A stretch of DNA of 64,000 nt, taken from contig CAYSSJ010000004.1 in NCBI GenBank assembly GCA_964433675.1, forward strand, positions 66,454 to 130,453. The letters are read 5' to 3'. Under the pieces are notes generated by a model. It was not told the DNA's origin and made no database searches. It worked only from the letters and a program-made list of their open reading frames with translations. Position 1 is the stretch's first letter. The number at the start of each line of letters is the position of its first letter. The stretch comes from an uncultured Candidatus Cloacimonadota bacterium (GTDB lineage Bacteria > Cloacimonadota > Cloacimonadia > Cloacimonadales > TCS61). Both the position numbers and the translations under genes were made by a program. Positions 3,309 through 62,095 of this stretch are shown here, in pieces.

Positions 3309-4118
3309 TTACAATTGGATAAATGCCTTTTTATGATCATGCGGGAAGAAGAGGATACCCTCTCTCTGTTGCAACTCTGATAGTATACGTTTTTTGGCAT
3401 GGTAAGTATCTTTGCGGCAGACATCGTAAGCTGAGGTGACAGCCGGATGCAGATGCGGCTCCGAAGTGATGATATCACCGGCATAATAAGCTAATTCACC
3501 ATCACTTTCTATCCGGATAGATTGCATCCCTTCGGTGTGTCCACCTACCAACTCCAGTCTTACCTCATCGGTAAGCTGATGATCACCGTCTATGAGCAGG
3601 AAATTACCGCTTTCTTCCAAGAGGGTGAGATCAGCTTTGAAGTTGTAGGAAGCCATGTTTAGGCCGTCCGGATGTTTGGCTATTTCCCACTCCCGCTGCT
3701 GAATTATATGAGTGGCATTAGGGAAAGTGAGCTTATATTCACCATTTTGTGCGGAAACGATTCCACCGGCATGGTCGAAATGGAGATGAGTGAGCACCAC
3801 ATAGTCTATCTCTTCGGGTTCGATCCCTAGTTTTTTCAGATTCTCAGGCAGGCAAAACTCGCTAGGTTGATAGATCTTCTGTTGCTTAGCGGTGATCTTG
3901 TTCCCGATTCCTGTATCGATGAGGATCGTCTTAGCTGCCGTACGGATGATCAGCAGATTGAGAGCGAGCGGGATGCGGTTTTTCTCGTCCGGGGTGATCT
4001 TCTTCTGCCATATAGCTTTGGGCAATACACCCATCGAAGCACCACCGTCTCCCTTCCAGCTTCCGGCTGAGACAATATAATTATTTGTTTTTCCCAGCTT
4101 TATTCCGTTTTGGTTCAT
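3309..4118 (-). CDS. MBL-fold metallo-hydrolase
   Basis: LTHLHFDHAGG (HxHxDH) metallo-beta-lactamase motif. The 38 nt overlap with jag suggests the true start may be the internal Met at about 4034. Confidence 0.7.
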   Translation of the reverse strand: MNQNGIKLGKTNNYIVSAGSWKGDGGASMGVLPKAIWQKKITPDEKNRIPLALNLLIIRTAAKTILIDTGIGNKITAKQQKIYQPSEFCLPENLKKLGIEPEEIDYVVLTHLHFDHAGGIVSAQNGEYKLTFPNATHIIQQREWEIAKHPDGLNMASYNFKADLTLLEESGNFLLIDGDHQLTDEVRLELVGGHTEGMQSIRIESDGELAYYAGDIITSEPHLHPAVTSAYDVCRKDTYHAKKRILSELQQREGILFFPHDHKKAFIQL

Positions 4119-4782
4119 AATTCTTTTTATTAGAATTTTCAGGCAGTTTATCTGCCGGCATTATTACTATTCTTTTTTGACTACCTTCACCGATCGTCAT
4201 GGTCTTCAAATCTTTATCTTTTTCTATCTGTTTGTGTACAACGCGGCGGTGAGCGGCGTGTAGCGGTTCGAGTGTTATACTTTTGTTGCGGGTTTTCACC
4301 TTCTCAGCGATGCTTTTTACTTTGTCCACTAGAGCATCTTCCCTACGTTTGCGATAGTTATCCACATCGAGTTTAACTTTTATCGGGGCTTTTTCCGCTT
4401 TGCTTATCATTTGTGTGATCAGATATTGTAAACTATCGAGTAGTTTTGCTTCTTTTCCGATCAAAAATCCGGCATCTTCCTTGCTACTGATCTTAACTTC
4501 GTAAATACCGTTGTTCTCTTCACAGGTTACGGTTTCATAGCGTACATTCATCTTGTCCATCAAAGTTTGAGTGAAAGATTTGATCCTCTCACTGCTGTCG
4601 GGCAACGTAAATTTGATTTTCACTTTTTTGGAACCGAATAGTCCCAATACACCTTTTGATCCTTCTTCTACAACTTCAAAGGTAAAATCTTGCAAATTCA
4701 AGTTAAATTCTTTCATAAAGCTGTTTATCACAGCTGAAGTTGTTTTTCCTTCTCGTTTGATTACTTTCATAGGTTTCCTCAA
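4081..4782 (-). CDS. jag: Jag/KhpB-type RNA-binding protein (Jag_N, KH, R3H)
   Basis: Position directly downstream of yidC; KH-like GFLIGKEAKLLDSLQYL segment; conserved yidC-jag synteny. Confidence 0.7.
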   Translation of the reverse strand: MRKPMKVIKREGKTTSAVINSFMKEFNLNLQDFTFEVVEEGSKGVLGLFGSKKVKIKFTLPDSSERIKSFTQTLMDKMNVRYETVTCEENNGIYEVKISSKEDAGFLIGKEAKLLDSLQYLITQMISKAEKAPIKVKLDVDNYRKRREDALVDKVKSIAEKVKTRNKSITLEPLHAAHRRVVHKQIEKDKDLKTMTIGEGSQKRIVIMPADKLPENSNKKNYEPKRNKAGKNK

Positions 4783-6377
4783 TATAGTTTTTTCTTAATA
4801 AAATACTGTTGGAATATAGACATCACATTGAATACAGTCCAATACAATACCAATCCGGCAGGCAGGGTGCGAAAGATAAAGAATAGTACGACCGGCATGA
4901 TATAAGCCATCATTTTCTGGCTTTGATAAGCAGCTTGCTGTTTTTCATCCATCTCTTCGGATGCTTGTTTGGAGGGAGCCATCATTTTCTGCTGAACGAA
5001 CATGAAGAGAGCCATAATGATTGGCAGGATCATATAGGGATCCGGCTCGGATAGATCCGGCAGCCAGAGGAAATGCGTCTGCCTGAGCTCGATAGAATAG
5101 CGCAAAAGCGGGTAGAGGGCAAACAAGACGGGCGCCTGCAAGAGCAGTGGCAGACATCCGCCCAGCGGATTTACCTTGTGTTCTTTGTATAGATTGCGCA
5201 ATTCCGCTTGCAGCTTCTTCGGATCGTCCTTGTACTTGGTCTGGATCTCTTTCATCAGCGGATTGATCTTCTGCATCTTGGTGGTGGATTCGAAACTCTT
5301 GTGAGTGAGTGGGTAGAGTATGATCTTGAGTACGAGGGCAAAGATGATGATGCAGATACCCCAGTTTGGGATCACATTGTTCAATTTCTGCAAGAACCAC
5401 AAAAATATCTTACTGATCCACTGAATGATACCGGGTCCCAACTCCACATTGTTTTCCAATCCGATATTGTATCTGTTCAAATTATCGTACAAAAGCGGAC
5501 CCAGATACATATCATAGGAATGGCGGATACTCTCTCTCGGCACGGAGACATTCATACTAAAAGCGGGGCTTTCCTGAACAGTGGTCACCAGCACACTGTT
5601 GGTATCGATCATATCGTCCGGGATAAGACTGAGGATGAAGTACTTGGAGCGGATTACAGACCAGTCTATATTCCCTCTGAATACTTCCGGTTCACTTATG
5701 CGCGATAGTCTTTCTCTGGTGATGGAATTGTCTATCTGGGCTGCGAAATTGTATTCTCTCGATTTGTTCTTCAGATATTCTTCCGTATCAGCAATACCGG
5801 AGAGGAATGAGACATCATAATTATCTACTGCCACTATTCCCTCGGCTACGAACTGACTATGTACATTATACTCGTCGTTTAGCTCATAAGTAAGTTGGAT
5901 GCTGCCGGCATCGCTAAGGAGTGTGAAGGAGACGCGCTTGTTGTCCGGCGAAGTATCGTATTGGAAGCGAAATTCGGATAGATCAATCTCCGTACCGTCT
6001 GTAGTATGCAGAGTGATTCCAAAGAGAGCTTCATTTTCCGGGATCAGATTCACATAGGAAGTCTTATCTGCCAGATAATATTCTTTCAGGATCACCTCGT
6101 TGACCATCGCACCCTGATTTGTAAAGGTAAGCGCCATTTTATCGTTCTCTATACGGATATCATCTCGGCGGACTTCTTCTTCGTCCAGTTCTTGTAGATC
6201 TAAGGGGGTGCGACGAGTAGGTTCTTCATAAGATACTTCTTCGGTGTAAGGTTCTTCTACGATTTCGGGCCGGGGTTGTTGAACCGGTTCTTCTTCCGGT
6301 GTACGCCAGAGGATCTGGTTACTGATCCAAAAGACGATAAAGATGAGCAACAGGGTAATAATAGTTCTTTTTTCCAC
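4779..6377 (-). CDS. yidC: Membrane protein insertase YidC
   Basis: N-terminal TM then periplasmic domain; C-terminal 5-TM core with conserved YidC-like segments; synteny rnpA-yidD-yidC. Confidence 0.85.
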   Translation of the reverse strand: MEKRTIITLLLIFIVFWISNQILWRTPEEEPVQQPRPEIVEEPYTEEVSYEEPTRRTPLDLQELDEEEVRRDDIRIENDKMALTFTNQGAMVNEVILKEYYLADKTSYVNLIPENEALFGITLHTTDGTEIDLSEFRFQYDTSPDNKRVSFTLLSDAGSIQLTYELNDEYNVHSQFVAEGIVAVDNYDVSFLSGIADTEEYLKNKSREYNFAAQIDNSITRERLSRISEPEVFRGNIDWSVIRSKYFILSLIPDDMIDTNSVLVTTVQESPAFSMNVSVPRESIRHSYDMYLGPLLYDNLNRYNIGLENNVELGPGIIQWISKIFLWFLQKLNNVIPNWGICIIIFALVLKIILYPLTHKSFESTTKMQKINPLMKEIQTKYKDDPKKLQAELRNLYKEHKVNPLGGCLPLLLQAPVLFALYPLLRYSIELRQTHFLWLPDLSEPDPYMILPIIMALFMFVQQKMMAPSKQASEEMDEKQQAAYQSQKMMAYIMPVVLFFIFRTLPAGLVLYWTVFNVMSIFQQYFIKKKLY

Positions 6378-6392
6378 GATTTACTCCAATGT

Positions 6393-6611
6393 TTAAGGCA
6401 GTGGGTCTATCCCACCGGGATGAAAGGGATGACAGCGCAGGATACGAGTAACTGAGAGCCAGAATGCCTTGAAGAAAGGGTATTTTTGAAAAGCGCTACA
6501 GGCATATTCGCTGCAAGTCGGCATAAAGCGGCAAGTAGGTGGAAGCATGGGTGAGATGAACCTTTTGTAGCCTCTGATCAGAAAAAGAAAAAAACGGTTA
6601 GCGAATTTCAT
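6393..6611 (-). CDS. yidD: Membrane protein insertion efficiency factor YidD
   Basis: [19 protein letters not shown]...HPGGIDPLP is the YidD signature. Confidence 0.85.
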
Positions 6612-6931
6612 ACCACTCTCGCTAAGATGTCTTCCAAGTCGGTTCTAATACTTTCCCAACCTACCTCAACAGCTTCCGGTTTGGCTATGATGAGCATTTT
6701 CTTCTGCTCGGGCAGATTATGTTCCCACTCTCTAAGGAAAGCACGAACACGTCTTTTTATCTTATTTCGTACCACAGCACGCTTATCTACACGTTTGCTG
6801 ATGATGATAGCGACCAAGCAGGTTTGCCGGTTCTCACCATCACAGACCAGCAGATTGAAAAATCTGCCCGGATATCTTTTGTGTCTTGCATATATTTCAT
6901 CAAAATCTTTTTTTGCAGAGATATATCTCAT
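6608..6931 (-). CDS. rnpA: Ribonuclease P protein component
   Basis: RNase P protein motif [19 protein letters not shown]; overlaps rpmH stop (ATGA). Confidence 0.85.
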
Positions 6932-7071
6932 TTATCGCTAACGGTAAGGATATGTCTTCCCTTTGCGCGTCTGCGCGCTAGGATTTTTCTACCGGCTTTG
7001 GTAGCCATACGAGCACGGAAACCATGCTTGTTCCTACGCTTACGATTATGCGGTTGATATGTCCGTTTCAT
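6928..7071 (-). CDS. rpmH: 50S ribosomal protein L34 (not in ORF track, under 60 aa)
   Basis: Manual translation of minus strand gives [47 protein letters not shown], the canonical L34 sequence. Confidence 0.85.
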
Positions 7072-8972: not shown

Positions 8973-10109
8973 ATGCCAACCATAATCTCCGATCCGGATA
9001 AAAAACTGATCCTCGAGATCAGCGACGATAAATTTTCCGCTTATCTTACCATTAAAAATAATGATGAGATCATAGATGAGAAGGAGATCATCACCCTTCT
9101 GGAACTTGCCGATATCAAAGCGGGGTTCAAAAACGCATCTCTCTTCTGCCAAGAAAACAACATAAAGAAAGAGGTAAACAAAAAATTTCTGATCGCACTG
9201 GGAGAAAAGCCGAAGATCGAAAGTTCGATAGATATCAAAATAGACCTCTCACGCTCTTATCAAACCGACTTTGGTTTGGACGAGCTAGAAAAATGCACTT
9301 GGGTGGCAAAAGATCAGAGCTTGGCAGAAGTAAGTTTGGAAGAAAACGTAAAATCAGCTCGTAATGTACATGGTGAGACGATTTCGGCAGATAAACTGCG
9401 GGAAAGCAGCATAAAGAAATATCTGGGCGAGAATCTGTATTTCGATAGTGAAGCAAGAGTAATTCGGGCGGCGAGCTACGGTTATCCGTACCAAGATGAA
9501 AAAGGTCGCCTCCATGTAAAAAACAAGCTGAATTGGGAAGCGGATATTATCGATAAAAGCGGAGTACTCTATGCCAGTCTGAATCTAAACGGTAGACTGA
9601 TAGGCTGCCAAGAGCTGGTCATCTTCGGGGATTGTAATGTGCTGGGAGTGGAGAACTCGACGGTGATCTGCAGTGGCAAATTCAAGTACAAGCAAATGGT
9701 CGATTCTGCCACTATTATAGCGGAAAACGGCATCATCGGAGATGAGAGCAGCTCATATATAAGCGGTCATATTTTGAGCGGCGGATCGATCTGGGTGAAT
9801 ACTATGGGAACGCCACAGGATAATGTAACCAAAGCGGAGTTGTGTATCTCACCATTCTACAAATATCTGCTCCTGCCAAAAGAGACTATAAACAAGCATG
9901 TTGCTCAGATGTTACCTGCCGCTTCTGAAGATTTGGAGAGCTGTTTTGAGAAACGTTTGAACGCGACACTCGCCAACGAGCAAACCGGCTTGGAGATCAA
10001 TGTAACTCATACTCTTTTTAAAAATACATCCCTCAGAATATTGGATCATCAATATCTGGCAGAAAAAGATCGGGCGAAGATAAATTTTAGGGAAAAGAGC
10101 AAAGAATAA
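8973..10109 (+). CDS. FapA/DUF342 family protein (flagellar-assembly-protein-A-like)
   Basis: N-terminal LILEISDDKFSAYLTIKNND resembles the FapA_N signature (...S.DKM.AYLTL...); size and beta-helix-like C-terminus are compatible. Confidence 0.5.
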   Translation: MPTIISDPDKKLILEISDDKFSAYLTIKNNDEIIDEKEIITLLELADIKAGFKNASLFCQENNIKKEVNKKFLIALGEKPKIESSIDIKIDLSRSYQTDFGLDELEKCTWVAKDQSLAEVSLEENVKSARNVHGETISADKLRESSIKKYLGENLYFDSEARVIRAASYGYPYQDEKGRLHVKNKLNWEADIIDKSGVLYASLNLNGRLIGCQELVIFGDCNVLGVENSTVICSGKFKYKQMVDSATIIAENGIIGDESSSYISGHILSGGSIWVNTMGTPQDNVTKAELCISPFYKYLLLPKETINKHVAQMLPAASEDLESCFEKRLNATLANEQTGLEINVTHTLFKNTSLRILDHQYLAEKDRAKINFREKSKE

Positions 10110-10764
10110 GAGAGTGTGAGAAGATGGGAATAGTAACGAAGGATTAAGGATCAAGGACGAAGGAAAGAACCAATATAGTGGCGCAGTTTTTAGTGATGAG
10201 TGATGAGTTTACATGCGAAGAAGATAGAGGATAGAGAGTAGAGGGAAGATTGGAGGTTAGGTGGATAGGAGGATAGGTTTGGAGTGAAAGCACCAAATTT
10301 CCCCGACAAAATAGGCAAGAAGATATCAGGTGAAAAGTAAAAGGGGAGAAGGGAAAGGGAAAAGTAACAAGTGACGAGTAACGAGTGACAAGGAAATCTC
10401 AATGACCGAATGACCGTAACGACTGAACGATTGAACGACTCAACTAATTAACCAATTAACCAATCAACCTCATCTTGCTATTCTTGCACCAACTCACACT
10501 TCGATACGCTCCGGCTTACGCCGAAGCTACTCAGTGTGACAAGCTTCTGATCTCTAAACCCTCAACCCTAAACTTCATCCTTGTCCTCCGTAGCCTCGGC
10601 GAAGGAGGATTGCTTCTCTCGCACCACTTTTCACATTATTAATTCTCTTGGAAAAAACATCATTGACAAATTGCAGCTTCAAGAAAAAGTGGGAAAAAAA
10701 GTAAAAGGAAGTGCATATTGTGATACGAGGACCGATTTGGGGCGTGCAAAAGTTTATAATACGA

Positions 10765-10797
10765 AAGCATTTATCGACTGGTAAATGCTTTTTTTCT
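10765..10797 (+). terminator. Rho-independent terminator-like hairpin (agcatttatcgactggtaaatgct plus 7 T)
   Basis: 7-bp perfect stem, 8-nt loop, followed by tttttttc; lies at the end of a 700 bp repeat-rich gene-free region just upstream of the 10830 gene. Confidence 0.55.
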
Positions 10798-10829
10798 TAT
10801 ATAGAGTCTAATTTGGCAAGGAGCGTGTT

Positions 10830-11549
10830 ATGACAGAAGAACTTGAAGTATTGGTGGAGATGCAGAAGAAAGATGATAGAATCGGCAAATACGAACACCA
10901 ACTGAAGATCCTACCCGAAGAGCTGAGCAGTCTGAAGCAGACCTTGGCAGAAGCAAATGCTGCCTTGGAGGAGACGGAGAGCAATCTTACAGAGAATTTG
11001 AAGTCTCAGAAGAAGCTGGAGCTGGAGATCGAAGATAACAAGCAGAGGATTGATAAATACAAAAATCAGTTGCTCTCTATAAAGACGAACAAGGAATATA
11101 AAGCGCTCAACGGTGAGATCAATCATCTGGAAACCAAAAATTCCGATATCGATGATAAATTAATTGCATTGATGGAAGAAGAGAGTAATTTAAGAGAAGA
11201 GAAGGAGAAGAGACTGGAAGCTAAGCGGTCGGCAGAGCAGGAGTTGAAAGCGAATGAGAAGCGACTGGAAGATAAGATAGCTGCTCTGCAAAAAGAGATA
11301 GAGCGGCTCAAGGAGCAGCGCAATGAATATGGCAGGAAGCTGCCGTTCAATCTATTGCGTAAATATGCTGGTCTGATCAAGAACAAGAACCGTAAAGCGG
11401 TAGTCCATTGCAGCGGTGAAGTTTGCGGAGGATGTGGATTTTCTATTCGTCCTCAGCTTATAATAGAGCTGAAGGAAGGCAAGAGTGTGTTATATTGTGA
11501 GAATTGTGGCAGGATCATGGTATATATTCCTGCTGAAGATAAAGAGTGA
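10830..11549 (+). CDS. Coiled-coil protein with C-terminal C4 zinc ribbon (COG1579/zf-RING_7-like)
   Basis: Long heptad-rich region then CSGEVCGGCGFSI...LYCENCGR, two CxxC pairs. Confidence 0.6.
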   Translation: MTEELEVLVEMQKKDDRIGKYEHQLKILPEELSSLKQTLAEANAALEETESNLTENLKSQKKLELEIEDNKQRIDKYKNQLLSIKTNKEYKALNGEINHLETKNSDIDDKLIALMEEESNLREEKEKRLEAKRSAEQELKANEKRLEDKIAALQKEIERLKEQRNEYGRKLPFNLLRKYAGLIKNKNRKAVVHCSGEVCGGCGFSIRPQLIIELKEGKSVLYCENCGRIMVYIPAEDKE

Positions 11550-11574
11550 GGATGTTGTTGAAGAGGATTAAATG

Positions 11575-11885
11575 TCTGCTACCTGTAGAAATGGCAGGTG
11601 GAGGAAAGTCCGAACACCAGAGGGCAGGATACTTCCTAACCGGAAGCTCCGGCAACGGAGAGATAGCTCCACAGAAACAAACCGCTCCGAGTTTACTCGG
11701 AGTAAGGGTGGAATGGTGGTGTAAGAGACCACCGGATCTCGGTGTGAATCGAGATGCCAGGAAAGCCTTATCCGGTGCAATGCCAAATAGGAAAGCATGG
11801 GTTTGCCCGACCCGTTATGCTTTCGGGTAGGCAGCTACAGTCGGGCGGTGTTGCCGCTCTCGAAAAGAGAATAGCAATATCCGAC
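11575..11885 (+). ncRNA. rnpB: RNase P RNA, bacterial type A (boundaries approximate, plus or minus 25 nt)
   Basis: Conserved blocks ggaggaaagtccg, acagaaa, agggtggaa-ggtg-gtaagagaccacc and aatgccaaatagg, all typical of bacterial RNase P RNA; ORFs 11546-11830(+) and 11568-11798(-) here are spurious. Confidence 0.8.
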
Positions 11886-11980
11886 GTAGATAAATAGACA
11901 TTGGGTTGCTTGTTAGGCAACTTACAGAATTCGGCTTATTATCTTCTTCAACAACACTTCAAGTTAATATAAAGGTTGTT

Positions 11981-16421: not shown

Positions 16422-16925
16422 TTATTTAACTTTTTGAAATCCCGGGCTATTCCCTCTTTTCCCGGTGTTCTTTTTGAAATCCCGGGACATTCTATCTTTG
16501 CCGGGAGTTCTTATGTACTGAGCTTCTTCAGCTTGTTTTTGCTGTTCGGGAGTGAGGGTTTCCCACAATTCTTTTCGCATATCGATGGAATTCTTTTCAA
16601 TCAGAGCTTGCTGATTGTTGATCTTAGTGACGATCTTTTTTGCTTCTGCATAGTTATGCTCTCTGAGTTCTTCTTTCATTTCCAATCTCCACACGTTAAT
16701 CTCCGAGCGAAGCGGAATATTTTGCTTTTGATATTTGGCACGGATGTTTCTGATCTGGTTATGTTGATCTACGCTAAGTTCTACATCCGCTAACATTCTG
16801 GCGAAAGGAGCCAGATGTGCATTCTCCTGACCGGCATAGCCATCACCATGCCCATGTGGTCCATGTGCTATTGCGAGAGAGGCAATAGCTAAGGTTGCGA
16901 TTATGAGTATGATACTCTTTTTCAT
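16422..16925 (-). CDS. Spy/CpxP-family periplasmic chaperone-like protein
   Basis: Signal peptide; LTPEQQKQ motif typical of CpxP/Spy/ZraP family. Confidence 0.6.
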   Translation of the reverse strand: MKKSIILIIATLAIASLAIAHGPHGHGDGYAGQENAHLAPFARMLADVELSVDQHNQIRNIRAKYQKQNIPLRSEINVWRLEMKEELREHNYAEAKKIVTKINNQQALIEKNSIDMRKELWETLTPEQQKQAEEAQYIRTPGKDRMSRDFKKNTGKRGNSPGFQKVK

Positions 16926-18305: not shown

Positions 18306-18438
18306 CTTTTTTTATATAGACAATGTAGGAATACAAATCCTTCGAAAAAAGTCAAAAAAAATAAAATTCTTGCCAGATATAAGCTATATTTTTTCTTTGC
18401 ATTTACATAAGAATAATACAGAATTAGAGGTGGTAAAT

Positions 18439-18630
18439 ATGTCTAGAATATGTGATATTTGTGGTAAGGGACCCCAGGTTGGCAATTATAGAAGTCATGC
18501 TATGAATGCCAACAAGAGAAGATTTTATCCCAATTTGCAAAGAATGCGAGCCGAAATAGACGGTAAGATCAAAAAAGTAAAAGTGTGCACGACTTGCCTT
18601 AAGGGCAACAAAGTGAAGAAGGTAATCTAA
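18439..18630 (+). CDS. rpmB: 50S ribosomal protein L28
   Basis: [34 protein letters not shown] matches L28; RBS gaggtgg; ORF-track start at 18235 is an upstream extension. Confidence 0.85.
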
Positions 18631-18633
18631 GAA

Positions 18634-18662
18634 AGGAAAGACCGATCGGTCTTTTCTTTTTT
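18634..18662 (+). terminator. Rho-independent terminator (aaagaccgatcggtcttt plus T-run)
   Basis: Perfect palindrome followed by tctttttt after rpmB stop. Confidence 0.75.
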
Positions 18663-18711
18663 GCCTGAATCGAGAAACCGCAGTATTTTTTTGTAAAAAA
18701 GGAGTGAGCTG

Positions 18712-37884: not shown

Positions 37885-37894
37885 ATTATATATA

Positions 37895-38452
37895 CTACTG
37901 TTTTTTTAGAAAAATCGAAAAATAATTCACACCGGAGAGGATTGTCAGGAGAGCTACAACCCAGAAATAGATGTTTATTACCGAGATGATCCCCGGATCA
38001 TATTCATAAAATTTGGTATAAGTATAAAACAAGAGGGTAAAGATCAAGCCGATGATCTGCGTTAAAGTTTTTAGTTTACCATAGATATTGGCAGCTATGT
38101 AGATTCTCCTCTTTTTGAAGTATTCTCGCAAGATAGAGACGGCAATTTCTCTGAAAGCTATGATAATGAAGATAACGATGCTGATATAACCTATCTTTGT
38201 TGCAAAAGCGAGTAGCGCGGTGAGTACCAAGATTTTATCTGCCAGTGGATCCATAATTTTACCAAAGTCGGAAATTACTTGGAAGCGTCTTGCCAAAAGC
38301 CCATCAAAATAGTCTGTGATAGCAGCTACGATGAAGACGATAGTAGCCCAGAGAGCACCTTGAGGAGTAGTGGTGAAGAATATCAGCACCAAAAATACCG
38401 GAACTAGTAGAATGCGGAACATCGTCAGTATATTCGGTATGTTTTTTTTCAT
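37895..38452 (-). CDS. pgsA: CDP-diacylglycerol--glycerol-3-phosphate 3-phosphatidyltransferase
   Basis: CDP-alcohol phosphatidyltransferase motif DYFDGLLARRF...GKIMDPLADKI; start at internal Met MKKNIPNILT (ORF track 38551). Confidence 0.75.
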   Translation of the reverse strand: MKKNIPNILTMFRILLVPVFLVLIFFTTTPQGALWATIVFIVAAITDYFDGLLARRFQVISDFGKIMDPLADKILVLTALLAFATKIGYISIVIFIIIAFREIAVSILREYFKKRRIYIAANIYGKLKTLTQIIGLIFTLLFYTYTKFYEYDPGIISVINIYFWVVALLTILSGVNYFSIFLKKQ

Positions 38453-54578: not shown

Positions 54579-54621
54579 CACACTTCGATACGCTCCGGCT
54601 TCGCCGAAGCTACTCAGTGTG
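54579..54621. repeat. Core imperfect hairpin of interspersed mosaic repeat (copy 2 of 4)
   Basis: cacact-tcgatacgctccg-gcttcg-c-cgaagc-tactc-agtgtg; near-identical copies at 10495-10538, 61515-61554, 61836-61879. Confidence 0.8.
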
Positions 54622-54819
54622 ACAAGCTTATGACCGTTGATCTCTAAACTATCACTCTAAACTGCATATTGCATTATTCATTATACATTGTTCATTTACT
54701 TACATTCTCACCTTCTCCAATCTGCTTACTGCCTACTGCTTACTGTATTCCAATCTTCCTATCTTCCTATCCTCCTAACCTCCTAACCTCCTATCTACTA
54801 CCTTCCACCGTCTATCACC

Positions 54820-57147
54820 TTACTTCAACAGAACCACCCGATGTGTCTGTGTCTCACTACCATTTCTCAGCTTCGCCAGATATATCCCCGAAGCTACCAC
54901 TCTGCCACGATTATCTCTGCCATCCCAGGTGATATGAGTTACAGAATCTTCCGATGGTGACACTTCCAATTTTCGCACTAACTGTCCTTTGATGTTGTAG
55001 AGTTCGATGACGGCATCTTCGTCTATCTGGGGCAGATTAATAGCGAAGGTGGTCTCAGTATTGAACGGATTGGGGAAGTTAGCGAAAGTTACCTCCGGTG
55101 GTAAGATAGCGGGCTCATCGGCGGAGATGGGAGTGATATTAAGTTCGTAGAGGGAGAGGTGGTCTCTATTAACACTGAAAGCATAAACTTCTGGTCCGGT
55201 TTCGAGAAAATGCATATTATTTGTTCCATGTAAGGTCTCATGTCCAAATATGAAACTATCAATTATTCCGTTTGGAGAATCTCCAATATCATAAAGCAAT
55301 TGTATCGGGCGGACAGCTGATGTAGTTATAAACAAAATTCCATCATAATAATCAACGGTATAAGGAGTAATACTTAAACCTGTCTGAATCGAAAACTGTA
55401 CTGTTGGTTCAGTAGGATTTTCTAATGAATAAAAATTATCTATTATTGTATTATAATCTCTATGAAAGAGATAATCATTTACTATCGTTGGAGATGCATG
55501 TGCATGATTAACAAAATTCATATGAGAATTTGCAATAGAAGGATCATTCTCGAACAAACCATCTATTATATAGAGGTTTTGAGTGTTTTGTGGTTCATTT
55601 CGTTCATACAAATAACCATAACCATTATGTATCAAAATCGTATATCCGACCGGATGTTCGAATTCGAATAGCAATTCGGGATTTCGAGGATCACTGATAT
55701 CATATTTTCTTAATATCGAATTTGGGTAATGCCTGTAAATATAAATCGTGTCATCTTCATATTCATCTATACGAATCTTACTATGAACAATCGGTTCTGT
55801 AGATATTTCGGCTAAAAGTTCTACTTCCGGCAAGTTTGATATATCATAAATCTCGACCAATGATTCTGCCATCACAGATAGTATTAGTAAATCATGCTTT
55901 ATGTTTATATGATAATATTCATTTTCATATAATTCGTTATAAATAATTTGAGGATTATGAGGATCCTGTATATCATAAAAATAGACGCCGGCACTTCCAA
56001 AGGTAGTATAATACCAATCAGAATTTATTACAAGATAATGATCATAAAACTTACTGGTACTGGCTAAGGTAGTTGGGTAGTCAAAATGTATTTCTCTAAA
56101 TTCGATTTGCATTTCATCCCTATTCAATTCAAAAACATGGATATAGTCGGTTAAGGTAGCATAGATAATATCTTCATGTACTGTGGGTTGTCTGGGAACT
56201 GGCACATATATGTTAATATGGTCAAGAACTTGTGGATTATAAATATCACTAATATCCAATAATTCTAATCCATTTTGCTTCATTAAGATCAATAAATGAT
56301 CGTCTATATAACTATATTTTCTATAATTGACAGAAAGCGGAAAATCAAATTCATAATGTGTTATATATTGCCAATCTACCGGATCGGTTATATCCCAAAA
56401 TGAGATAGCAAATTGGTTATTTACCATAACAACATCTTCTGAATATCTGGTAAAATAGGTAATGGAAGATGTTGTCGGGTTATGAATATCGGACATATCT
56501 ATCTCATTGAGGTATTGAATATTGTTTATATCGGAAAATTCATAAAAATATAATGTGTTGTTTGGCATACTAATATGTATCGCAATTTCATCGGTTAATT
56601 CGTGTAGTGTCAGGTAGTAAGGTGGTAGCGGCGACTGAGGAAGTGTGGCAACATATTCCAAATCCGGTAAGGTATATAGCTCACTTCCTTCCAGAACATT
56701 ATAGACTTGTAGATAATTTCCGATTTTATAACCGCCAACACCAGTTGATTCAGAGTAACTAAGTTGAATTGCATTTTCGATTATCGGAGTTGAAGGATTA
56801 GATACATTTACTTGATATATAGTACTTGGTTCGGTGACAAAATCAAATTCGGGGTAACTAGGTCCAAATGTGATGATATATAAATAATCCCCGTGTTTCA
56901 CAAATGAATTTGGCACCTTGAAAGGTAAGATTGATAAACATTCCAATGTCCCATTTTCCTGGATTTCGAATATCTGCATAGAACATCTGGTTATTGTGTA
57001 CAAATATGGCTCATCGATTATTATGTGATCATGACTTGAAAAATAAGACTGAGAATAACCGTAGTGATCGATAAGCTCTAACGAAGCTTCTGTAGCTAAC
57101 ACAGGAAGTACTATTATAGTTAGAATTAATATAATAATATTTTTCAT
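54820..57147 (-). CDS. LVIVD-repeat beta-propeller protein with T9SS C-terminal sorting domain (paralog A)
   Basis: Signal peptide; repeated LxIxDISDPxNP-type LVIVD blades; C-terminal FANFPNPFNTETTF...YNIKGQLVRKL...GIYLAKL T9SS CTD. Confidence 0.7.
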   Translation of the reverse strand: MKNIIILILTIIVLPVLATEASLELIDHYGYSQSYFSSHDHIIIDEPYLYTITRCSMQIFEIQENGTLECLSILPFKVPNSFVKHGDYLYIITFGPSYPEFDFVTEPSTIYQVNVSNPSTPIIENAIQLSYSESTGVGGYKIGNYLQVYNVLEGSELYTLPDLEYVATLPQSPLPPYYLTLHELTDEIAIHISMPNNTLYFYEFSDINNIQYLNEIDMSDIHNPTTSSITYFTRYSEDVVMVNNQFAISFWDITDPVDWQYITHYEFDFPLSVNYRKYSYIDDHLLILMKQNGLELLDISDIYNPQVLDHINIYVPVPRQPTVHEDIIYATLTDYIHVFELNRDEMQIEFREIHFDYPTTLASTSKFYDHYLVINSDWYYTTFGSAGVYFYDIQDPHNPQIIYNELYENEYYHINIKHDLLILSVMAESLVEIYDISNLPEVELLAEISTEPIVHSKIRIDEYEDDTIYIYRHYPNSILRKYDISDPRNPELLFEFEHPVGYTILIHNGYGYLYERNEPQNTQNLYIIDGLFENDPSIANSHMNFVNHAHASPTIVNDYLFHRDYNTIIDNFYSLENPTEPTVQFSIQTGLSITPYTVDYYDGILFITTSAVRPIQLLYDIGDSPNGIIDSFIFGHETLHGTNNMHFLETGPEVYAFSVNRDHLSLYELNITPISADEPAILPPEVTFANFPNPFNTETTFAINLPQIDEDAVIELYNIKGQLVRKLEVSPSEDSVTHITWDGRDNRGRVVASGIYLAKLRNGSETQTHRVVLLK

Positions 57148-57219: not shown

Positions 57220-57600
57220 TTATGGTATTTGAGGAGTAGTACCACCACCATGTTGATTAGACGGCCAATAAATATCAAGCTCAATAGTAGATGGATGAAC
57301 TTCTCCAACTGTATAACTATCGTATTTATCTAAAATTAAAATACTCTGATGTGTACTTTTCATTTTAATCTCTGTACCAGGTTCAAGGCTTTCAGCAATT
57401 CTAGTCTCAGTCTCTCTCTCTCCGGGTACTAAAATAAACAATAACTCATTTTCTTCGTCTGGTCTTATTTCCCAAAAAAAGTATTCACCTGAATGAGCAT
57501 CTTCATGTACTTCACCAGTATACTTTATTGTTACTTCTGCCCACAACATTCCGATAGCAAAAAATATCATCAGGACCGTGATTATTATTATCTTTTTCAT
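57220..57600 (-). CDS. Small secreted protein (cassette A partner)
   Basis: Signal peptide MKKIIIITVLMIFFAIGMLWA; C-terminal IYWP..GGG resembles the 60575 paralog. Confidence 0.5.
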   Translation of the reverse strand: MKKIIIITVLMIFFAIGMLWAEVTIKYTGEVHEDAHSGEYFFWEIRPDEENELLFILVPGERETETRIAESLEPGTEIKMKSTHQSILILDKYDSYTVGEVHPSTIELDIYWPSNQHGGGTTPQIP

Positions 57601-57834
57601 TTTCTTTTCCTCCAGTTATTTTTATTTGTGCTCCCTATCTCATCCATTTTATTAGATTTGGAAAAGATAGTACTCCACCTCTCCCCGCGCCGGAGCATTA
57701 CGTAGGGAGAAAGAGCCGGATGTATTTGTTGCGACAGCAGAAATAGAGTCTTCGGAGGAAACTTGCTTTGATGATAATTGTTTCATATCTGACAGCCTTT
57801 CTATTTAAAGGACATATTTCTAAGGACAGAGAGA

Positions 57835-57847
57835 GGGGGGGGGGGGG
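57835..57847. repeat. Homopolymeric G13/C13 tract in conserved upstream region of cassette A
   Basis: 13 consecutive G followed by taaaat, about 235 nt upstream of the 57600 start codon. Confidence 0.9.
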
Positions 57848-58190
57848 TAAAATATTGTTTTACATAGAGATAGCGAATCTGACGCTAATTCTCTTTGCAA
57901 AACAAAAAGTTTGTGAGCAAATCTCAGGATCATCATGCCTCCTTACGATCCTAAAAACTACCCTTTACCTCACGCTCCTTAGCTACGATATTGACATTTT
58001 TCCTTGCGAAATTATAGCATTAATTTTCTAAAACACTTATCTACCTGTCAAGAAAAATCTTATCTTCCAACAAATTCCTATAAATTCCTGCCAATACCTT
58101 GTTTCTAAACCTCTCCCTTGTCCTCCGTAGCCTGTAAGGTGAAGGGGGCTTGCTTCTTCTTCCACCCTCCACTCTCCTCCTTCTATCATC

Positions 58191-60506
58191 TTACTTCAAC
58201 AGCACCACCCGATGTGTCTGTGTCTCACTACCATTTCTCAGTTTCGCCAGATATATCCCCGAAGCTACCACTCTGCCTTTACTATCTCTGCCATCCCAGG
58301 TGATATGTGTTACAGAATCTTCCGATGGTGGAACTTCCAGCTTACGGATCAATTGTCCTTTGATATTATAGAGTTCGATTACGGCATCGTCTTCTATATC
58401 CGGAAGATTGATAGCGAAGGTGGTTTCGGTGTTGAACGGATTGGGGAAGTTGGCGAAAGCCATATCCGGCGGGATTATAGCGGGATCATCGGCGGAGATG
58501 GGAGTGATATTGAGTTCGTAGAGGGAGAGGTGGGAGCGTCCGATATTATACATATAAGTAGTAGAATTAGTTTCGTAGATAAATGAGTAGTTTTGAGAAT
58601 ATTCCTCAAAATAAGTTTCATGTGTAATTGTACCGGTAACTTCACCCGATATGTCATATAAGAAAGTGACACGTGATCCAAGCATTAATGGAGAGGCAAA
58701 TATGATATCTTCATAATACAAATACATATTCAGTGGGTATTCGAGTTGAAAGACGAATTCTGGATTATGGGGGTCTGTTTGTATTTCATATAAGTGCGAT
58801 TCATGATTTGGAGAAAACAAGACTAAGTGGTCCAGGTAGTTGTTCGTGTACAAGTAAACAGTATCATCATAATTACTGAAGCCTGGGATAGCATTTGCCA
58901 GATAAGGCTGATTATCATGCAAACCACCTACTACATGCAGATCTTGGGTTGCTGCATGCTGATGATTGGTTAAGATATAACCATATCCATCGTTTACTAC
59001 AAATCTCGGAGCTGTAAATCCGTCCTCATAAAATAACAGTTCTACAGAATTAGACTCTATTTGGTATTTTCTAATAATTGAATCCGGATAGCGCGTATGC
59101 ACATAAAATACATCATCCACATAAGGATCTGTAACTACTTGTGAAAATATAAAATCCCAAACATCATAAAAGACAATTTGATCGATTAATCCGGGCATGG
59201 TGGGAACTGTGATATCATATATATTTAGATAGAATTCATCCTGATTAAGATCTCCATCTACTTTAGCAATCAGATAGTTATCAAGTATTTTGGGTTGAGA
59301 TAAATCTTTGAATGCTTCTATTTCTATAATAGATGGATTGAGTGGATCAGAGAGATCATACATATAAATACCATAGTAGTCCGAATCAAGAAATATTAAA
59401 TCCATATATTGTCCGGCAAGGCTAGAATTAACAGGGTAAGAAAGATATTCGCCAATGTATTCGAATTCCATAGTACTTTCATTCAGATAAACCTGTAAGA
59501 TACCTTCATCATCATCGGAAGGTATATAAATAGTATTATTAGACTCATTAAATACCCCGCAATTTATGTTCTTATAAAAAAGATCATGATGATCCAGTAT
59601 GACAGGGTCATAGATGTCGGTTATATCGACCAGGTATAGTCCATCTTGGGCATATACTATCATCAGCCAGTTTTCTATTATATCATGCACAGCCCGCCAT
59701 ATCATATCAGAATCCAAAGAAAAACTGCTGAGATAAGTCCAATCTTCGGTATCTGATATATCCCAAAAGGAAAGACAAGTCTGTCCTGCCATCATCAGCA
59801 ATGTATCTCTGATTACGGTGAATTTCCCGGGTAAATGATCACCATGAATGTCCCAGACATCGATGGTGCTTATGAGTTCTAGATTTTCGATATCGGAGTA
59901 ATCATATATATCGATATTGCCATAACCTGGGCTTTGATCAACTGCTATATTATCGGAGATTTCATGTAACTTTACATGATAACCCGGTAGAACAGAAGGT
60001 GGCAGGGAAGTAATATATTCCAGATCGGGTATGGTGTATATATCGCTGGCAAACTGATAACTGCCGGCTTGTAGATATTCGCCTACTATGTTGATAGAAC
60101 GATTGTTCTCAATACTATCATATTCAATGCTATTGATAATTTGCGGATTATGCTTATCAGAGACATCTATCTGATGTAAAGTTAAAGGCGTGGTATATGG
60201 TTTCAAATATGAGCCAACAAAATTGCTGGTAAGCAGATAGATATAATCATCCGCTTTGGTAAAGTATGCAGCACTAACGATAGGTAAGTGCGATAATTTG
60301 GTCAGTTCATCATCGTTACCAATTTCAAAGATAGCAAGCCCTGATACTGTAACAGCATATAAATATGGGTGTTCTACTATCAACCTGTCGTGTGTAGCAC
60401 CAAAGGCTTCTCCAAAATTAATGGATTTGATATGTTCGATATCTATTTCTACGGATACTAAATTGTATGTAAATATTATTAGTATAATTATCCCTATATT
60501 TTTCAT
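58191..60506 (-). CDS. LVIVD-repeat beta-propeller protein with T9SS C-terminal sorting domain (paralog B)
   Basis: Same architecture as paralog A; last 330 nt nearly identical to paralog A at DNA level. Confidence 0.7.
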   Translation of the reverse strand: MKNIGIIILIIFTYNLVSVEIDIEHIKSINFGEAFGATHDRLIVEHPYLYAVTVSGLAIFEIGNDDELTKLSHLPIVSAAYFTKADDYIYLLTSNFVGSYLKPYTTPLTLHQIDVSDKHNPQIINSIEYDSIENNRSINIVGEYLQAGSYQFASDIYTIPDLEYITSLPPSVLPGYHVKLHEISDNIAVDQSPGYGNIDIYDYSDIENLELISTIDVWDIHGDHLPGKFTVIRDTLLMMAGQTCLSFWDISDTEDWTYLSSFSLDSDMIWRAVHDIIENWLMIVYAQDGLYLVDITDIYDPVILDHHDLFYKNINCGVFNESNNTIYIPSDDDEGILQVYLNESTMEFEYIGEYLSYPVNSSLAGQYMDLIFLDSDYYGIYMYDLSDPLNPSIIEIEAFKDLSQPKILDNYLIAKVDGDLNQDEFYLNIYDITVPTMPGLIDQIVFYDVWDFIFSQVVTDPYVDDVFYVHTRYPDSIIRKYQIESNSVELLFYEDGFTAPRFVVNDGYGYILTNHQHAATQDLHVVGGLHDNQPYLANAIPGFSNYDDTVYLYTNNYLDHLVLFSPNHESHLYEIQTDPHNPEFVFQLEYPLNMYLYYEDIIFASPLMLGSRVTFLYDISGEVTGTITHETYFEEYSQNYSFIYETNSTTYMYNIGRSHLSLYELNITPISADDPAIIPPDMAFANFPNPFNTETTFAINLPDIEDDAVIELYNIKGQLIRKLEVPPSEDSVTHITWDGRDSKGRVVASGIYLAKLRNGSETQTHRVVLLK

Positions 60507-60574: not shown

Positions 60575-60991
60575 TCATTCAGGTTCCGGTATAGTTGGAT
60601 CATACTCCTCTGGAGGTTCTCCACCACCACCACCGGGCCAATAGATAACGATCGGATTGCCACTGAAGCCAGGCGGAACATCTTTTGTCCTTAGTATTGT
60701 TTCACCACTTGATGTTGTTGATTCGACTCCTGCACAGGCAGGATATTGAGTAGAGCTGGTTATGTATGTAGTATATGTTCTTGTATCTGGTGCTTGTACA
60801 TCTCCATAAGAACTAGATCGATAGAATGAAAATGGTGGACAAGGTTCTCTATCATATCCAATTTCAACATCATAAGCATTTTGAGTAAAGTGAACTTCTA
60901 CTATTAATTCGAGTGGATATTCAGTATCTGCTTGTAGCATGCCAACAGTACCCATTAGTAAGAGTACTGCGAGAATTATTATCTTTTTCAT
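60575..60991 (-). CDS. Small secreted protein (cassette B partner)
   Basis: Signal peptide MKKIIILAVLLLMGTVGMLQA; Ser/Thr/Tyr-rich; C-terminal IVIYWPGGGGG. Confidence 0.5.
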   Translation of the reverse strand: MKKIIILAVLLLMGTVGMLQADTEYPLELIVEVHFTQNAYDVEIGYDREPCPPFSFYRSSSYGDVQAPDTRTYTTYITSSTQYPACAGVESTTSSGETILRTKDVPPGFSGNPIVIYWPGGGGGEPPEEYDPTIPEPE

Positions 60992-61244
60992 TTTTTATTC
61001 CTCCTAATTTTTTTTTCACCCGTTATTTAATTTTACTCTCACCACAGGCAGGGTGAGAGGATTCCCCCTCGACTTGCGCCGGTAGTGGCAAATCAAATCC
61101 CTCTCTATGCGGGGAATCTTTTCATAGAGAGGTGCGCTCAGGTGAACTTGTTCTTCCCGATATAGAAGATATAATATTTTTTGGAGCGAGTATAGTTTTC
61201 TTGCTTTACTTTGCATCTTTTTATCTGTTTGGCATAGAAGTTGC

Positions 61245-61253
61245 GGGGGGGGG
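61245..61253. repeat. Homopolymeric G9/C9 tract in conserved upstream region of cassette B
   Basis: 9 consecutive G followed by taaaat, about 255 nt upstream of the 60991 start codon. Confidence 0.9.
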
Positions 61254-61974
61254 TAAAATGCCTATAATATAATGAGATAGAGTGAGAGCGCAGACTGCTT
61301 TGGAATATCCATAAATTCGACTAAAGCAACTCAGGAGCATCGTCACCTCCTTGTTTTTCCGCTCCTAAAAACTCTCTTTCTCATTCCCTTAGTTTCGATA
61401 TTGAACTTTTTTCTCATTTATATTATCGAAGCAAGTCTCTATATCTAACTAATATGTGTCAAGAAAAAAACTTTTTTCACCGGAATTTCTTCCTGCTACT
61501 CTTTCGCTATTTCCACTTCGATACGCTCCGGCTTCGCCGAAGCTACTCAGTGTGACAAGCTTATGACCGTTGATCTCTAAACTATCACTCTAAACTGCAT
61601 ATTACTTCTCTTCCAATAAAATTCCATGAGCGATGCGAATAAATTTCTCAATTCATTTCTTGATATTTTTTCGAAAACAAGATGACATCTTGTCCTACGT
61701 TCCATGCTCTTTGCAATAAATTCCGTGAGCGCAGCGAACAAATTCCTACATATTCCTATCAATACCTTCTTCCTAAACTTTCAACCAATTAACCAGTCAA
61801 CTAATCAACTTCATCCTGCTATTCTTGCACCAACTCACACTTCGATACGCTCCGGCTTGCGCCGAAACTACTCAGTGTGACAAGCTTATGACAGTTGATC
61901 TCTAAACTATCACTCTAAACTGCTTCTTACATTGTTCATTATACATTATTCATTCTCAACAGAATCTCTTCCTG

Positions 61975-62070
61975 CTTTTTCTTCCACCTTCCACCTTCTA
62001 TCATCTTATTTCAACATCACCACCCTATGTGTCAGCGTCTCCTTGCCATTTTTCAGTTTCGCCAGATATA
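61975..62070 (-). pseudogene. Degenerate remnant of an LVIVD/T9SS gene 3' end (CTD-encoding fragment only)
   Basis: About 90 percent identity to 58150-58260 over about 95 nt, then abrupt loss of similarity 25 nt before the comM stop codon. Confidence 0.6.
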
Positions 62071-62095
62071 CTCTCTAACCTAACGTCACACGCCT

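Follow-up and report, generated by a model that had tools for sequence, protein, structure and literature searches.

A putative translation-coupled attenuator leader and a repeat insertion in the spacer preceding the CT398-like gene and rnpB of Cloacimonadota

Introduction

The promoter of E. coli ampC lies inside the end of the preceding gene, and a single hairpin acts there both as the upstream operon's terminator and as the attenuator for the downstream gene. The loading of a ribosome in the ampC leader relieves termination, which results in growth-rate-dependent control. The sharing of the ampC attenuator with the frd terminator is credited to Jaurin et al. 1981 and Bergstrom et al. 1983 (cited in PMC9241650). 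Here, a predicted leader of a related layout is described, located at positions 10663-10833 of a 64,000-nucleotide stretch of DNA (the window) from an uncultured Candidatus Cloacimonadota bacterium (assembly GCA_964433675.1, contig CAYSSJ010000004.1, positions 66,454 to 130,453 of the forward strand). It occupies the 3' part of a spacer (10110-10829) that is bounded by a FapA_N-like open reading frame (ORF; 8973-10109, + strand) and a CT398-like ORF (10830-11549, + strand).

Two systems of Escherichia coli are also close in kind. In the pyrBI operon, a leader ORF (pyrL) runs through an intrinsic terminator located just before the first structural gene; no antiterminator hairpin is needed, and a closely following ribosome blocks the terminator (summarised in PMC4824070). 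In rph-pyrE, the upstream ORF is a full-length gene. When a stop codon was moved from 28 to 5 nt before the terminator in E. coli, termination was cut from ~90% to <10%, and more than ~27 nt separating the stop codon from the terminator were needed for full termination (PMC4824070).

No cis-regulatory elements of Cloacimonadota were described in the papers searched, and literature searches on the repeats and non-coding RNAs of this group and on nadC or RNase P leaders gave nothing relevant. Cloacimonadota are abundant uncultured fermenters of anaerobic digesters. In the original prediction, made from the window alone, the spacer had been taken for a gene-free region with repeats and a terminator, and a small RNA, an iteron array or origin-proximal sequence had been offered as explanations. 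Based on the comparison with related loci, we consider it fairly probable that the spacer is a composite, in which a repeat insertion (10110-10662) is followed by a translation-coupled attenuator leader (10663-10833).

Results and Discussion

A conserved module at the 3' end of the spacer

For comparison, 80 loci surrounding the CT398-like gene were taken from other species, and the neighbouring genes were placed in them by tblastn. When the 330 nt preceding the start of the CT398-like gene were aligned among syntenic relatives, a common module emerged, comprised of TTGACA, a second hexamer, a ribosome-binding site, a start codon, ~55 nt of unconserved sequence, a hairpin (AAGCATTT..C-loop-G..AAATGC) and 7-10 T. 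The leader was then searched for by using a hidden Markov model of the alignment (nhmmer) followed by a regular expression anchored on the hairpin and TTGAC. With the window included, 76 sequences contained it, each in a single copy per locus, at an unchanged position and without exception on the gene strand; the few loci with no match to the regular expression were contigs ending early or variant stems. The median distances in the 76 loci were 52.5 nt from TTGACA to the start of the upstream ORF (uORF) described below, 57.5 nt from that start to the hairpin, and 15 nt from the T run to the next start codon. Judged by alignment, the leader is conserved among the Cloacimonadota loci that were examined. 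Rfam has no entry for it, and no description of it was found in the papers searched. The comparison with related genomes, proposed along with the original prediction, split the spacer in two: the 3' ~170 nt were kept across the Cloacimonadota loci, and the 5' 553 nt were absent from the relatives.

The predicted promoter (10663-10691, + strand), assigned from the alignment of relatives and a hexamer table, consisted of TTGACA (10663-10668) and, after 17 nt, AAAGTG (10686-10691). The TTGACA box was invariant in the leader alignment; as TTGAC was required by the regular expression, the count of 76 loci is by itself no proof of the conservation of the box. In the relatives, a T-rich hexamer, usually ending in TG (TTTTTG, ATCATG, TTTATG), was located 17-19 nt past TTGACA. 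A Shine-Dalgarno-like AAGGAAG (10705-10711, + strand) was present in the window sequence 8 nt before the uORF start, and a purine-rich box was found 5-10 nt before the conserved GTG in the relatives.

A similar pattern was seen elsewhere in the window. Ahead of many genes, for instance at 165, 8524, 25265(-), 43042(-) and 52213, TTGACA/T was followed 14-19 nt on by a T-rich element ending in TG (such as ATATTTG, AAATTTG or TTATTTG). This window-wide pattern is a sigma-70 -35 box mixed with a Bacteroidota-like -7 motif, TAnnTTTG.

The terminator hairpin

A consensus scan located an intrinsic terminator or attenuator at 10763-10795 on the + strand (z-score -4.7), consisting of a 13-bp stem (10763-10775 with 10780-10792), a GACU loop and 7 T. 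The plus-strand rho-independent terminator of the original prediction was thereby confirmed, with its stem at 10763-10792 and its T run reaching 10795. An intrinsic terminator between the promoter and the first structural gene, an arrangement expected of an attenuator, was found in the 76 loci.

The stem was examined in 36 aligned species. There, 97.5% of the cells were paired, compared with 35-55% in slid controls, and 28 double-sided changes were counted versus 9.2 in shuffles, none of 500 shuffles reaching the observed value. The covariation was limited to the top three pairs of the stem; GCATTT of the 5' arm was invariant in 36 of 36 sequences. The loop measured 2-10 nt among the relatives. 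When the whole leader was folded with RNAalifold, the terminator helix was the only one obtained, with no antiterminator or other helix. This sole helix and the lack of a codon run shared among the peptides do not fit an attenuator of the trp/his type, with its mutually exclusive hairpins and regulatory codons.

It was also considered whether the hairpin is mainly a target of a protein or an RNase (for instance, an autoregulatory site of the CT398-like protein), a processing or stability element, or just the terminator of the upstream operon, the uORF being secondary. The invariance of GCATTT beneath a covarying stem top is in favor of a bound factor, and CT398-like homologues, such as HP0958 of H. 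pylori, reportedly bind RNA. Moreover, the upstream gene of the relatives ends inside the promoter, and therefore its transcripts must also end at this hairpin. However, the fixed uORF geometry and the frame statistics would be left unexplained, and the loop length of 2-10 nt argues against a DNA operator. Hairpins of the type AAAGCATTT...AAATGCTTTTTT were also ordinary terminators in many unrelated metagenomes among the matches listed: a metagenome scan with AAGCATTT-N8-24-RATGCTTTTTT returned generic terminators of unrelated habitats, and a nadC or CT398-like gene was present in 0 of 120 loci among these matches. The hairpin sequence is therefore nothing unusual. Such a role as the main function of the hairpin is regarded as quite unlikely.

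The upstream open reading frame

A uORF of 37 codons with a GTG start was recognized by frame analysis at 10720-10833 on the + strand. It ran through the hairpin, and its TGA overlapped the ATG of the next gene (ATGA, 10830-10833). The earlier statement that no credible ORF exists in the spacer held for long ORFs: the only two of at least 60 aa (10190-10402, - strand, and 10581-10784, + strand) had no Pfam match, and both overlay repeats. It did not hold for this short, conserved frame.

The uORF was chosen in each locus as the longest ATG/GTG frame in an interval of 27 nt, and the same rule was applied to the control, in which the sequence between the promoter and the hairpin was shuffled. 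The start codon was GTG in 31 loci and ATG in 45, and the length varied from 15 to 53 codons. All 76 loci kept the frame open until 16 nt or less were left to the hairpin, when 14.6 were expected from the shuffles; of 152 cases in the other two frames, 130 had an early stop (>16 nt ahead of the hairpin). The uORF ended 2-14 nt before the hairpin in 21 loci, where it was 15-19 codons long, within the hairpin or the T run in 13, and past the T run in 42 (5.9 in shuffles). Among the 41 read-through uORFs for which a downstream start was assigned, 18, that of the window included, terminated in an exact ATGA or GTGA overlap with this start, and the remaining ones mostly ended within 16 nt of it, despite the varying gap between the T run and the next start codon. 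The element thus has the attributes of a leader ORF, being a short ORF with a ribosome-binding site that reaches or crosses the hairpin. These statistics suggest that the conserved feature is the act of translation and its end-point, not the peptide.

The gap between the T run and the next start codon was 9-73 nt across all loci and 34 nt in the window. It holds a ribosome-binding site and has no room for another promoter, so the operon transcripts must pass the terminator. This bears on the possibility that the 3' module is an independent small gene for a micro-protein or a small RNA, equipped with its own promoter and terminator, the operon being transcribed from elsewhere and read-through being a side effect. 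Promoter, ribosome-binding site, start codon and terminator do make a complete unit; the 21 ORFs of 15-19 codons ending before the hairpin would suit such a gene, and substitutions in a 17-codon ORF were, by eye, synonymous or conservative among close relatives. Yet the peptides could not be aligned across the phylum and crossed the hairpin in two frames, a median of 15 nt after the T run is too little for another promoter, and no TTGAC[AT] box precedes rnpB inside the CT398-like gene. The exact overlaps in 18 of 41 uORFs, moreover, make sense only with translation continuing into the next gene. An independent gene was judged unlikely.

The original prediction had also noted no gene upstream of the terminator and proposed a small RNA ending at about 10797. 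The former was correct as regards long ORFs and missed the promoter box (10663-10668) and the uORF, which lie directly upstream of the hairpin and across it. From the latter, a short transcript of ~100 nt would still be expected whenever termination occurs, since TTGACA precedes the last base of the T run by 133 nt; the free-standing nature of this RNA was abandoned. A leader or attenuator was preferred because the RNA carries a conserved uORF, the terminator is located 34 nt before the next gene, and there is no room for a promoter in between.

Proposed mechanism and comparison with known leaders

The anatomy of the leader, its conservation, the covariation of its stem and its reading-frame statistics were taken as observed, and the following sequence of events was proposed on their basis. 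RNA polymerase would start at TTGACA-N17-AAAGTG, and a ribosome would load at AAGGAAG and the GTG and translate the uORF into or through the terminator hairpin. If the ribosome followed close behind the polymerase, the hairpin would be blocked and transcription would proceed into the CT398-like gene and rnpB (with nadC first in most other lineages), when the ATGA stop/start overlap would hand the ribosome over to the first gene. If uORF translation were absent or lagging, the hairpin would form and a short RNA of ~100 nt, as estimated from the promoter position, would end at ~10795. The leader was read as a translation-coupled attenuator because a ribosome crossing the hairpin or stopping near it suppresses intrinsic termination. 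The 21 loci with a uORF stop 2-14 nt from the hairpin fall in the range of suppression measured in E. coli.

The pyrBI leader resembles the present one in having a leader ORF through an intrinsic terminator just before the first structural gene. It differs in that the Cloacimonadota leader would control the CT398-like gene and rnpB (nadC first in most lineages), not pyrimidine genes, and in that no evident U-rich pause cluster precedes the hairpin, the leader being A-rich. The uORF also often overlaps the next start (ATGA), and no sequence homology exists between the two. In respect of the 21 loci with early stops, the leader is comparable to rph-pyrE, where a terminating ribosome acts over the same range (PMC4824070), although the Cloacimonadota uORF is a dedicated one of 15-19 codons with its own promoter. 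The layout, with a promoter embedded in the preceding gene's end and a single hairpin in both roles, is shared with ampC. The ampC leader, by contrast, holds a minimal start-stop ORF and occurs in a few enterobacteria, whereas the ORF described here comprises 15-53 codons with translational coupling to the next gene and was present in all Cloacimonadota loci examined. The Cloacimonadota leader is not homologous to the pyrBI, rph-pyrE or ampC leaders. A leader-ORF attenuator ahead of the (nadC)-CT398-like-rnpB operon would thus be a previously undescribed representative of a known regulatory kind.

Several points weigh against this interpretation. The six invariant stem pairs (GCATTT) are not accounted for by a model in which only the ribosome acts. 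The uORFs were chosen as the longest frames, and the loci are phylogenetically related. The uORF peptide is not conserved, the hairpin being translated in one of two frames (KHLP... or KAFA...) depending on the lineage, and no regulatory codon run, evident pause site or antiterminator was found in the leader. AAAGTG of the window retains the terminal TG but not the T-rich consensus, and the promoter may be weak. The clearest purine box of many nadC-type leaders is found 14-17 nt ahead of the ATG, a large distance for a ribosome-binding site. Promoter firing, uORF translation, termination and translation-dependent read-through were all inferred from the sequence. As for the repeat part (10110-10662), the lack of function is a default, not a result.

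A more far-reaching proposal is that the leader acts as a ribosome-sensing switch across Cloacimonadota, tying rnpB, and NadC in most lineages, to translation activity, with the GCAUUU stem read by a dedicated factor, possibly the CT398-like protein in an autoregulatory loop. We hold this to be rather unlikely. Such an autoregulatory loop, if true, would have no described counterpart among the genes for RNase P RNA.

The leader is a clear candidate for a cis-regulatory element of Cloacimonadota, and it precedes rnpB, the gene of an essential ribozyme; in most bacteria, little is understood of how the transcription of this gene is controlled. The ~75 natural variants of the leader, with two classes of uORF end-points, variable loops and fixed spacings, may serve as a mutagenesis series.

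Downstream genes and genomic setting

In most lineages the leader was followed by nadC (quinolinate phosphoribosyltransferase) and the CT398-like gene, and rnpB came after these in 8 of the 12 loci tested. In the clade of the window, nadC was absent at this position and the leader stood directly before the CT398-like gene. The latter (10830-11549, + strand) encodes a protein with a coiled coil and a C4 zinc ribbon (Pfam PF24481, PF02591) and is the first gene under the leader. A class A RNase P RNA gene, rnpB (11560-11953, + strand; Rfam RF00010, 256.7 bits), begins 11 nt past the CT398-like stop, and recJ is the next gene. No TTGAC[AT] box was found on the + strand between 10663 and 19663. 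Given this and the 11-nt gap, rnpB is probably co-transcribed with the CT398-like gene from the leader promoter.

In one-genome-per-species collections, the flanking protein had its best relatives in metagenome-assembled genomes of Cloacimonadota, with at most 58% identity. Two contigs labelled Armatimonadota (L015, L027) carried a leader and a CT398-like gene near-identical to those of Cloacimonadota contigs L012 and L013 and were probably mis-binned. In public assemblies, spurious ORFs of 90-94 aa were called wholly inside rnpB (11546-11830 of the window; L081 3723-4001; L082 3729-4001; L084 963-1241).

A cluster of rpmH, rnpA, yidD, yidC and jag was located at 4081-7071 on the - strand. It lacked dnaA, as had been stated originally; purA adjoined the cluster instead. 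The genes of the two RNase P subunits, rnpA (6608-6931, - strand) and rnpB, were less than 5 kb apart on opposite strands.

The repeat mosaic at 10110-10662

The distance from the FapA-like stop to TTGACA ranged from -41 to +43 nt in 16 syntenic Cloacimonadota, versus 553 nt in the window, and in 4 of the 16 loci the TGA within TTGACA was the FapA-like stop codon itself. As the upstream gene of the relatives ends at or inside the promoter box, the whole repeat mosaic was regarded as extra material. It was not found in the loci of other species or in viral contigs. Within the same species, the spacer was 100% identical in three other long contigs. Two short-read assemblies of this species were identical over the 240 nt they held, and their contigs started inside the spacer, as expected for a multi-copy repeat. 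A possible duplication of the 5' part of the leader inside the mosaic (10316-10344 vs 10680-10708) was dismissed as not significant, since 35 of 500 shuffles scored as high.

The mosaic begins directly after the FapA_N-like stop codon with a GA-rich, C-poor block (10110-10300, + strand) of 7-8 bp units (AAGGATC, AGTGATG, AGAGGAT, GATAGGAG), identified by Tandem Repeats Finder (TRF). Only 9 of the 181 bases in 10110-10290 were C (5%), and units of 7-8 bp were returned by TRF at 10136-10278, so the GA-rich block of the original prediction proved real. So did the claim of an inverted copy downstream of a paralogue: the GGATAGG block recurred inverted, 90% complementary, at 54766-54796, just downstream of the paralogue ending at 54820. 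Further 3', successive tandem blocks of AAGTAAC/AGTGACG (4.4 copies), AATGACCG (2 copies), AACGACTG (3.4 copies) and AACCAATT (3.5 copies) were recognized at 10362-10469 (+ strand) from TRF and the sequence, and one more block was found by TRF at 10554-10573. Degenerate tandem units had thus been seen correctly, except for their size, which was 7-8 bp (also 14 and 16) rather than 9-10 bp. In total, TRF gave 12 rows in 10136-10573, with periods of 7, 8, 14 and 16, and each mosaic unit was repeated just 2-7 times.

Across the window, 21 of 37 TRF rows were in three spacers (10136-10573, 54667-54796 and 61738-61998), where tandem units of 7-8 bp occurred between genes. Other Cloacimonadota had their own mosaics with different 7-8 bp blocks and GC-rich hairpins (L069 7168-7700, directly after rnpB, and L039 4750-5000); the phenomenon is therefore wider than the species of the window, and this insertion is particular to its lineage. 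The STRR (short tandemly repeated repetitive) heptamer arrays of cyanobacteria are tandem 7-nt intergenic units dispersed at many sites of a genome. The blocks of the window are like them in kind only, as tandem 7-8 bp intergenic units at several sites. They belong to another taxon, with no canonical STRR unit and no heterocystous cyanobacterium involved, and their unit sequences are different (AAGGATC, GATAGGAG, AACCAATT); many different units follow one another with 2-7 copies each, mixed with hairpin repeats. A separate 40-bp tandem repeat (2.1 copies, 83% identical) was noted at 16430-16512, over a minus-strand ORF (16422-16925).

The GA-rich block (10110-10340) could alternatively be a functional element of a 3' untranslated region, in which GGA/AGGAGG motifs would act as a sponge for CsrA-type proteins or 30S subunits after selected stop codons. 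GGA occurred 16 times in the block, versus 4.5 expected, and five sites were within one mismatch of AGGAGG. Immediately 3' of the stop codon, in this spacer as well as behind the paralogue ending at 54820, the purine-rich strand is the transcribed one, and similar purine-rich tails follow 58191 and 62082 (paralogues with a type IX secretion system tail). However, none of the syntenic relatives had the element, and, unlike a sponge of the Csr/Rsm type, it lacks its own promoter and terminator. Its RNA was unstructured on folding (z-score +1.3), whereas Csr/Rsm RNAs show GGA in hairpin loops. We consider such a function very unlikely.

The iterons and the origin-proximal location suggested originally were not upheld. 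No DnaA box was present in 10110-10830, even with one mismatch, and cumulative GC skew showed no turn at 10 kb of the window; the C-poor repeat block by itself accounts for the local peak in skew. The only arguments for a replication origin or an initiator-binding iteron array are the direct repeats and the nearby rpmH-rnpA-yidC-jag cluster. Against them, the units of 7-8 bp in 2-7 copies are too short and heterogeneous compared with iterons of 17-22 bp, and the repeat part is missing in syntenic relatives. There is also no dnaA, rep or other replication gene nearby, the neighbours being the FapA-like and CT398-like genes, rnpB and recJ. An origin or iteron array at this location is extremely improbable.

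No match in the spacer reached the gathering score in Rfam 15; at E up to 10, three chance-level matches (E >1) were obtained in 9900-11000, none of them for the region on the + strand. The segment 10110-10662 is most likely a lineage-specific non-coding insertion without sequence-specific function at this location. It may be selfish or slippage-generated filler, which at most insulates the upstream operon from the leader.

Dispersed hairpin repeats

A dispersed repeat module at 10440-10575 (+ strand), consisting of the AACCAATT block, hairpin 1 and a CTAAACC block, was revealed by a repeat search (111 nt, 92% identity to 61781-61891). According to a four-copy alignment, its core of ~90 nt is common to three other spacers. 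Hairpin 1 (10494-10539; -18.9 kcal/mol, z-score -3.0) corresponds to the mosaic-repeat hairpin reported originally, which was verified together with three more copies. The four copies in 64 kb, at 10494, 54581, 61514 and 61839, were situated only between genes. All of them had the same (+) orientation; the flanking genes were on the + strand in one case and on the - strand in three, a number too small for a bias test. Hairpin 1 was absent from the 80 loci of other species and had 0 matches in a scan of viral contigs. A second hairpin (GUCCUCC...GGAGGAU; 10583-10610, + strand) folded at -16.9 kcal/mol (z-score -2.1), and its 5' side was a second copy of the sequence at 58105-58133, as found by the repeat search.

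The ~90-nt core is a multi-copy extragenic element with a stable, imperfect hairpin, and in this it resembles REP/BIME and MITE-like elements, being restricted to intergenic sites with four copies in 64 kb. It differs in that low-complexity blocks surround the copies. Neither terminal inverted repeats nor target duplications were seen in the 64-kb window, and no ends could be recognised in the diverging flanks of the four copies.

Besides this spacer, the window has three long ones that are truly non-coding, and modules of the mosaic recurred in all of them (54581-54800, 58105-58133 and 61514-61928). Other long gaps of a crude gene call were rejected as repeat spacers: judged by eye, 18306-18711 reads as rpmB, and 37885-38448 is apparently a minus-strand coding gene. 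The mosaic shows that STRR-like and REP-like filler builds up in this lineage, and assemblies of the species will be fragmented by it. For annotation, the seemingly empty 720-bp spacer, the spurious ORF calls in rnpB and the contig breaks in the region are all accounted for.

Paralogous genes near the other repeat-bearing spacers

Two paralogous proteins of ~773 aa (54820-57147 and 58191-60506) shared their 3' end, and FlgD_ig and Por_Secre_tail domains were confirmed for the first. A third, orphaned copy of this 3' end (81% identical) was located at 61980-62082 in a 1.1-kb spacer devoid of ORFs and looks like a gene remnant amid repeats. Homopolymer runs of ~13 and 9 G (+ strand) were present at 57825-57850 and 61233-61246 in the long leaders of two paralogous minus-strand operons, flanked by TTTTTCTTGACA promoter boxes (at 58051 and 61462) on one side and by the first ORFs (57220-57600 and 60575-60991) on the other. 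These are possible tracts of slipped-strand phase variation.

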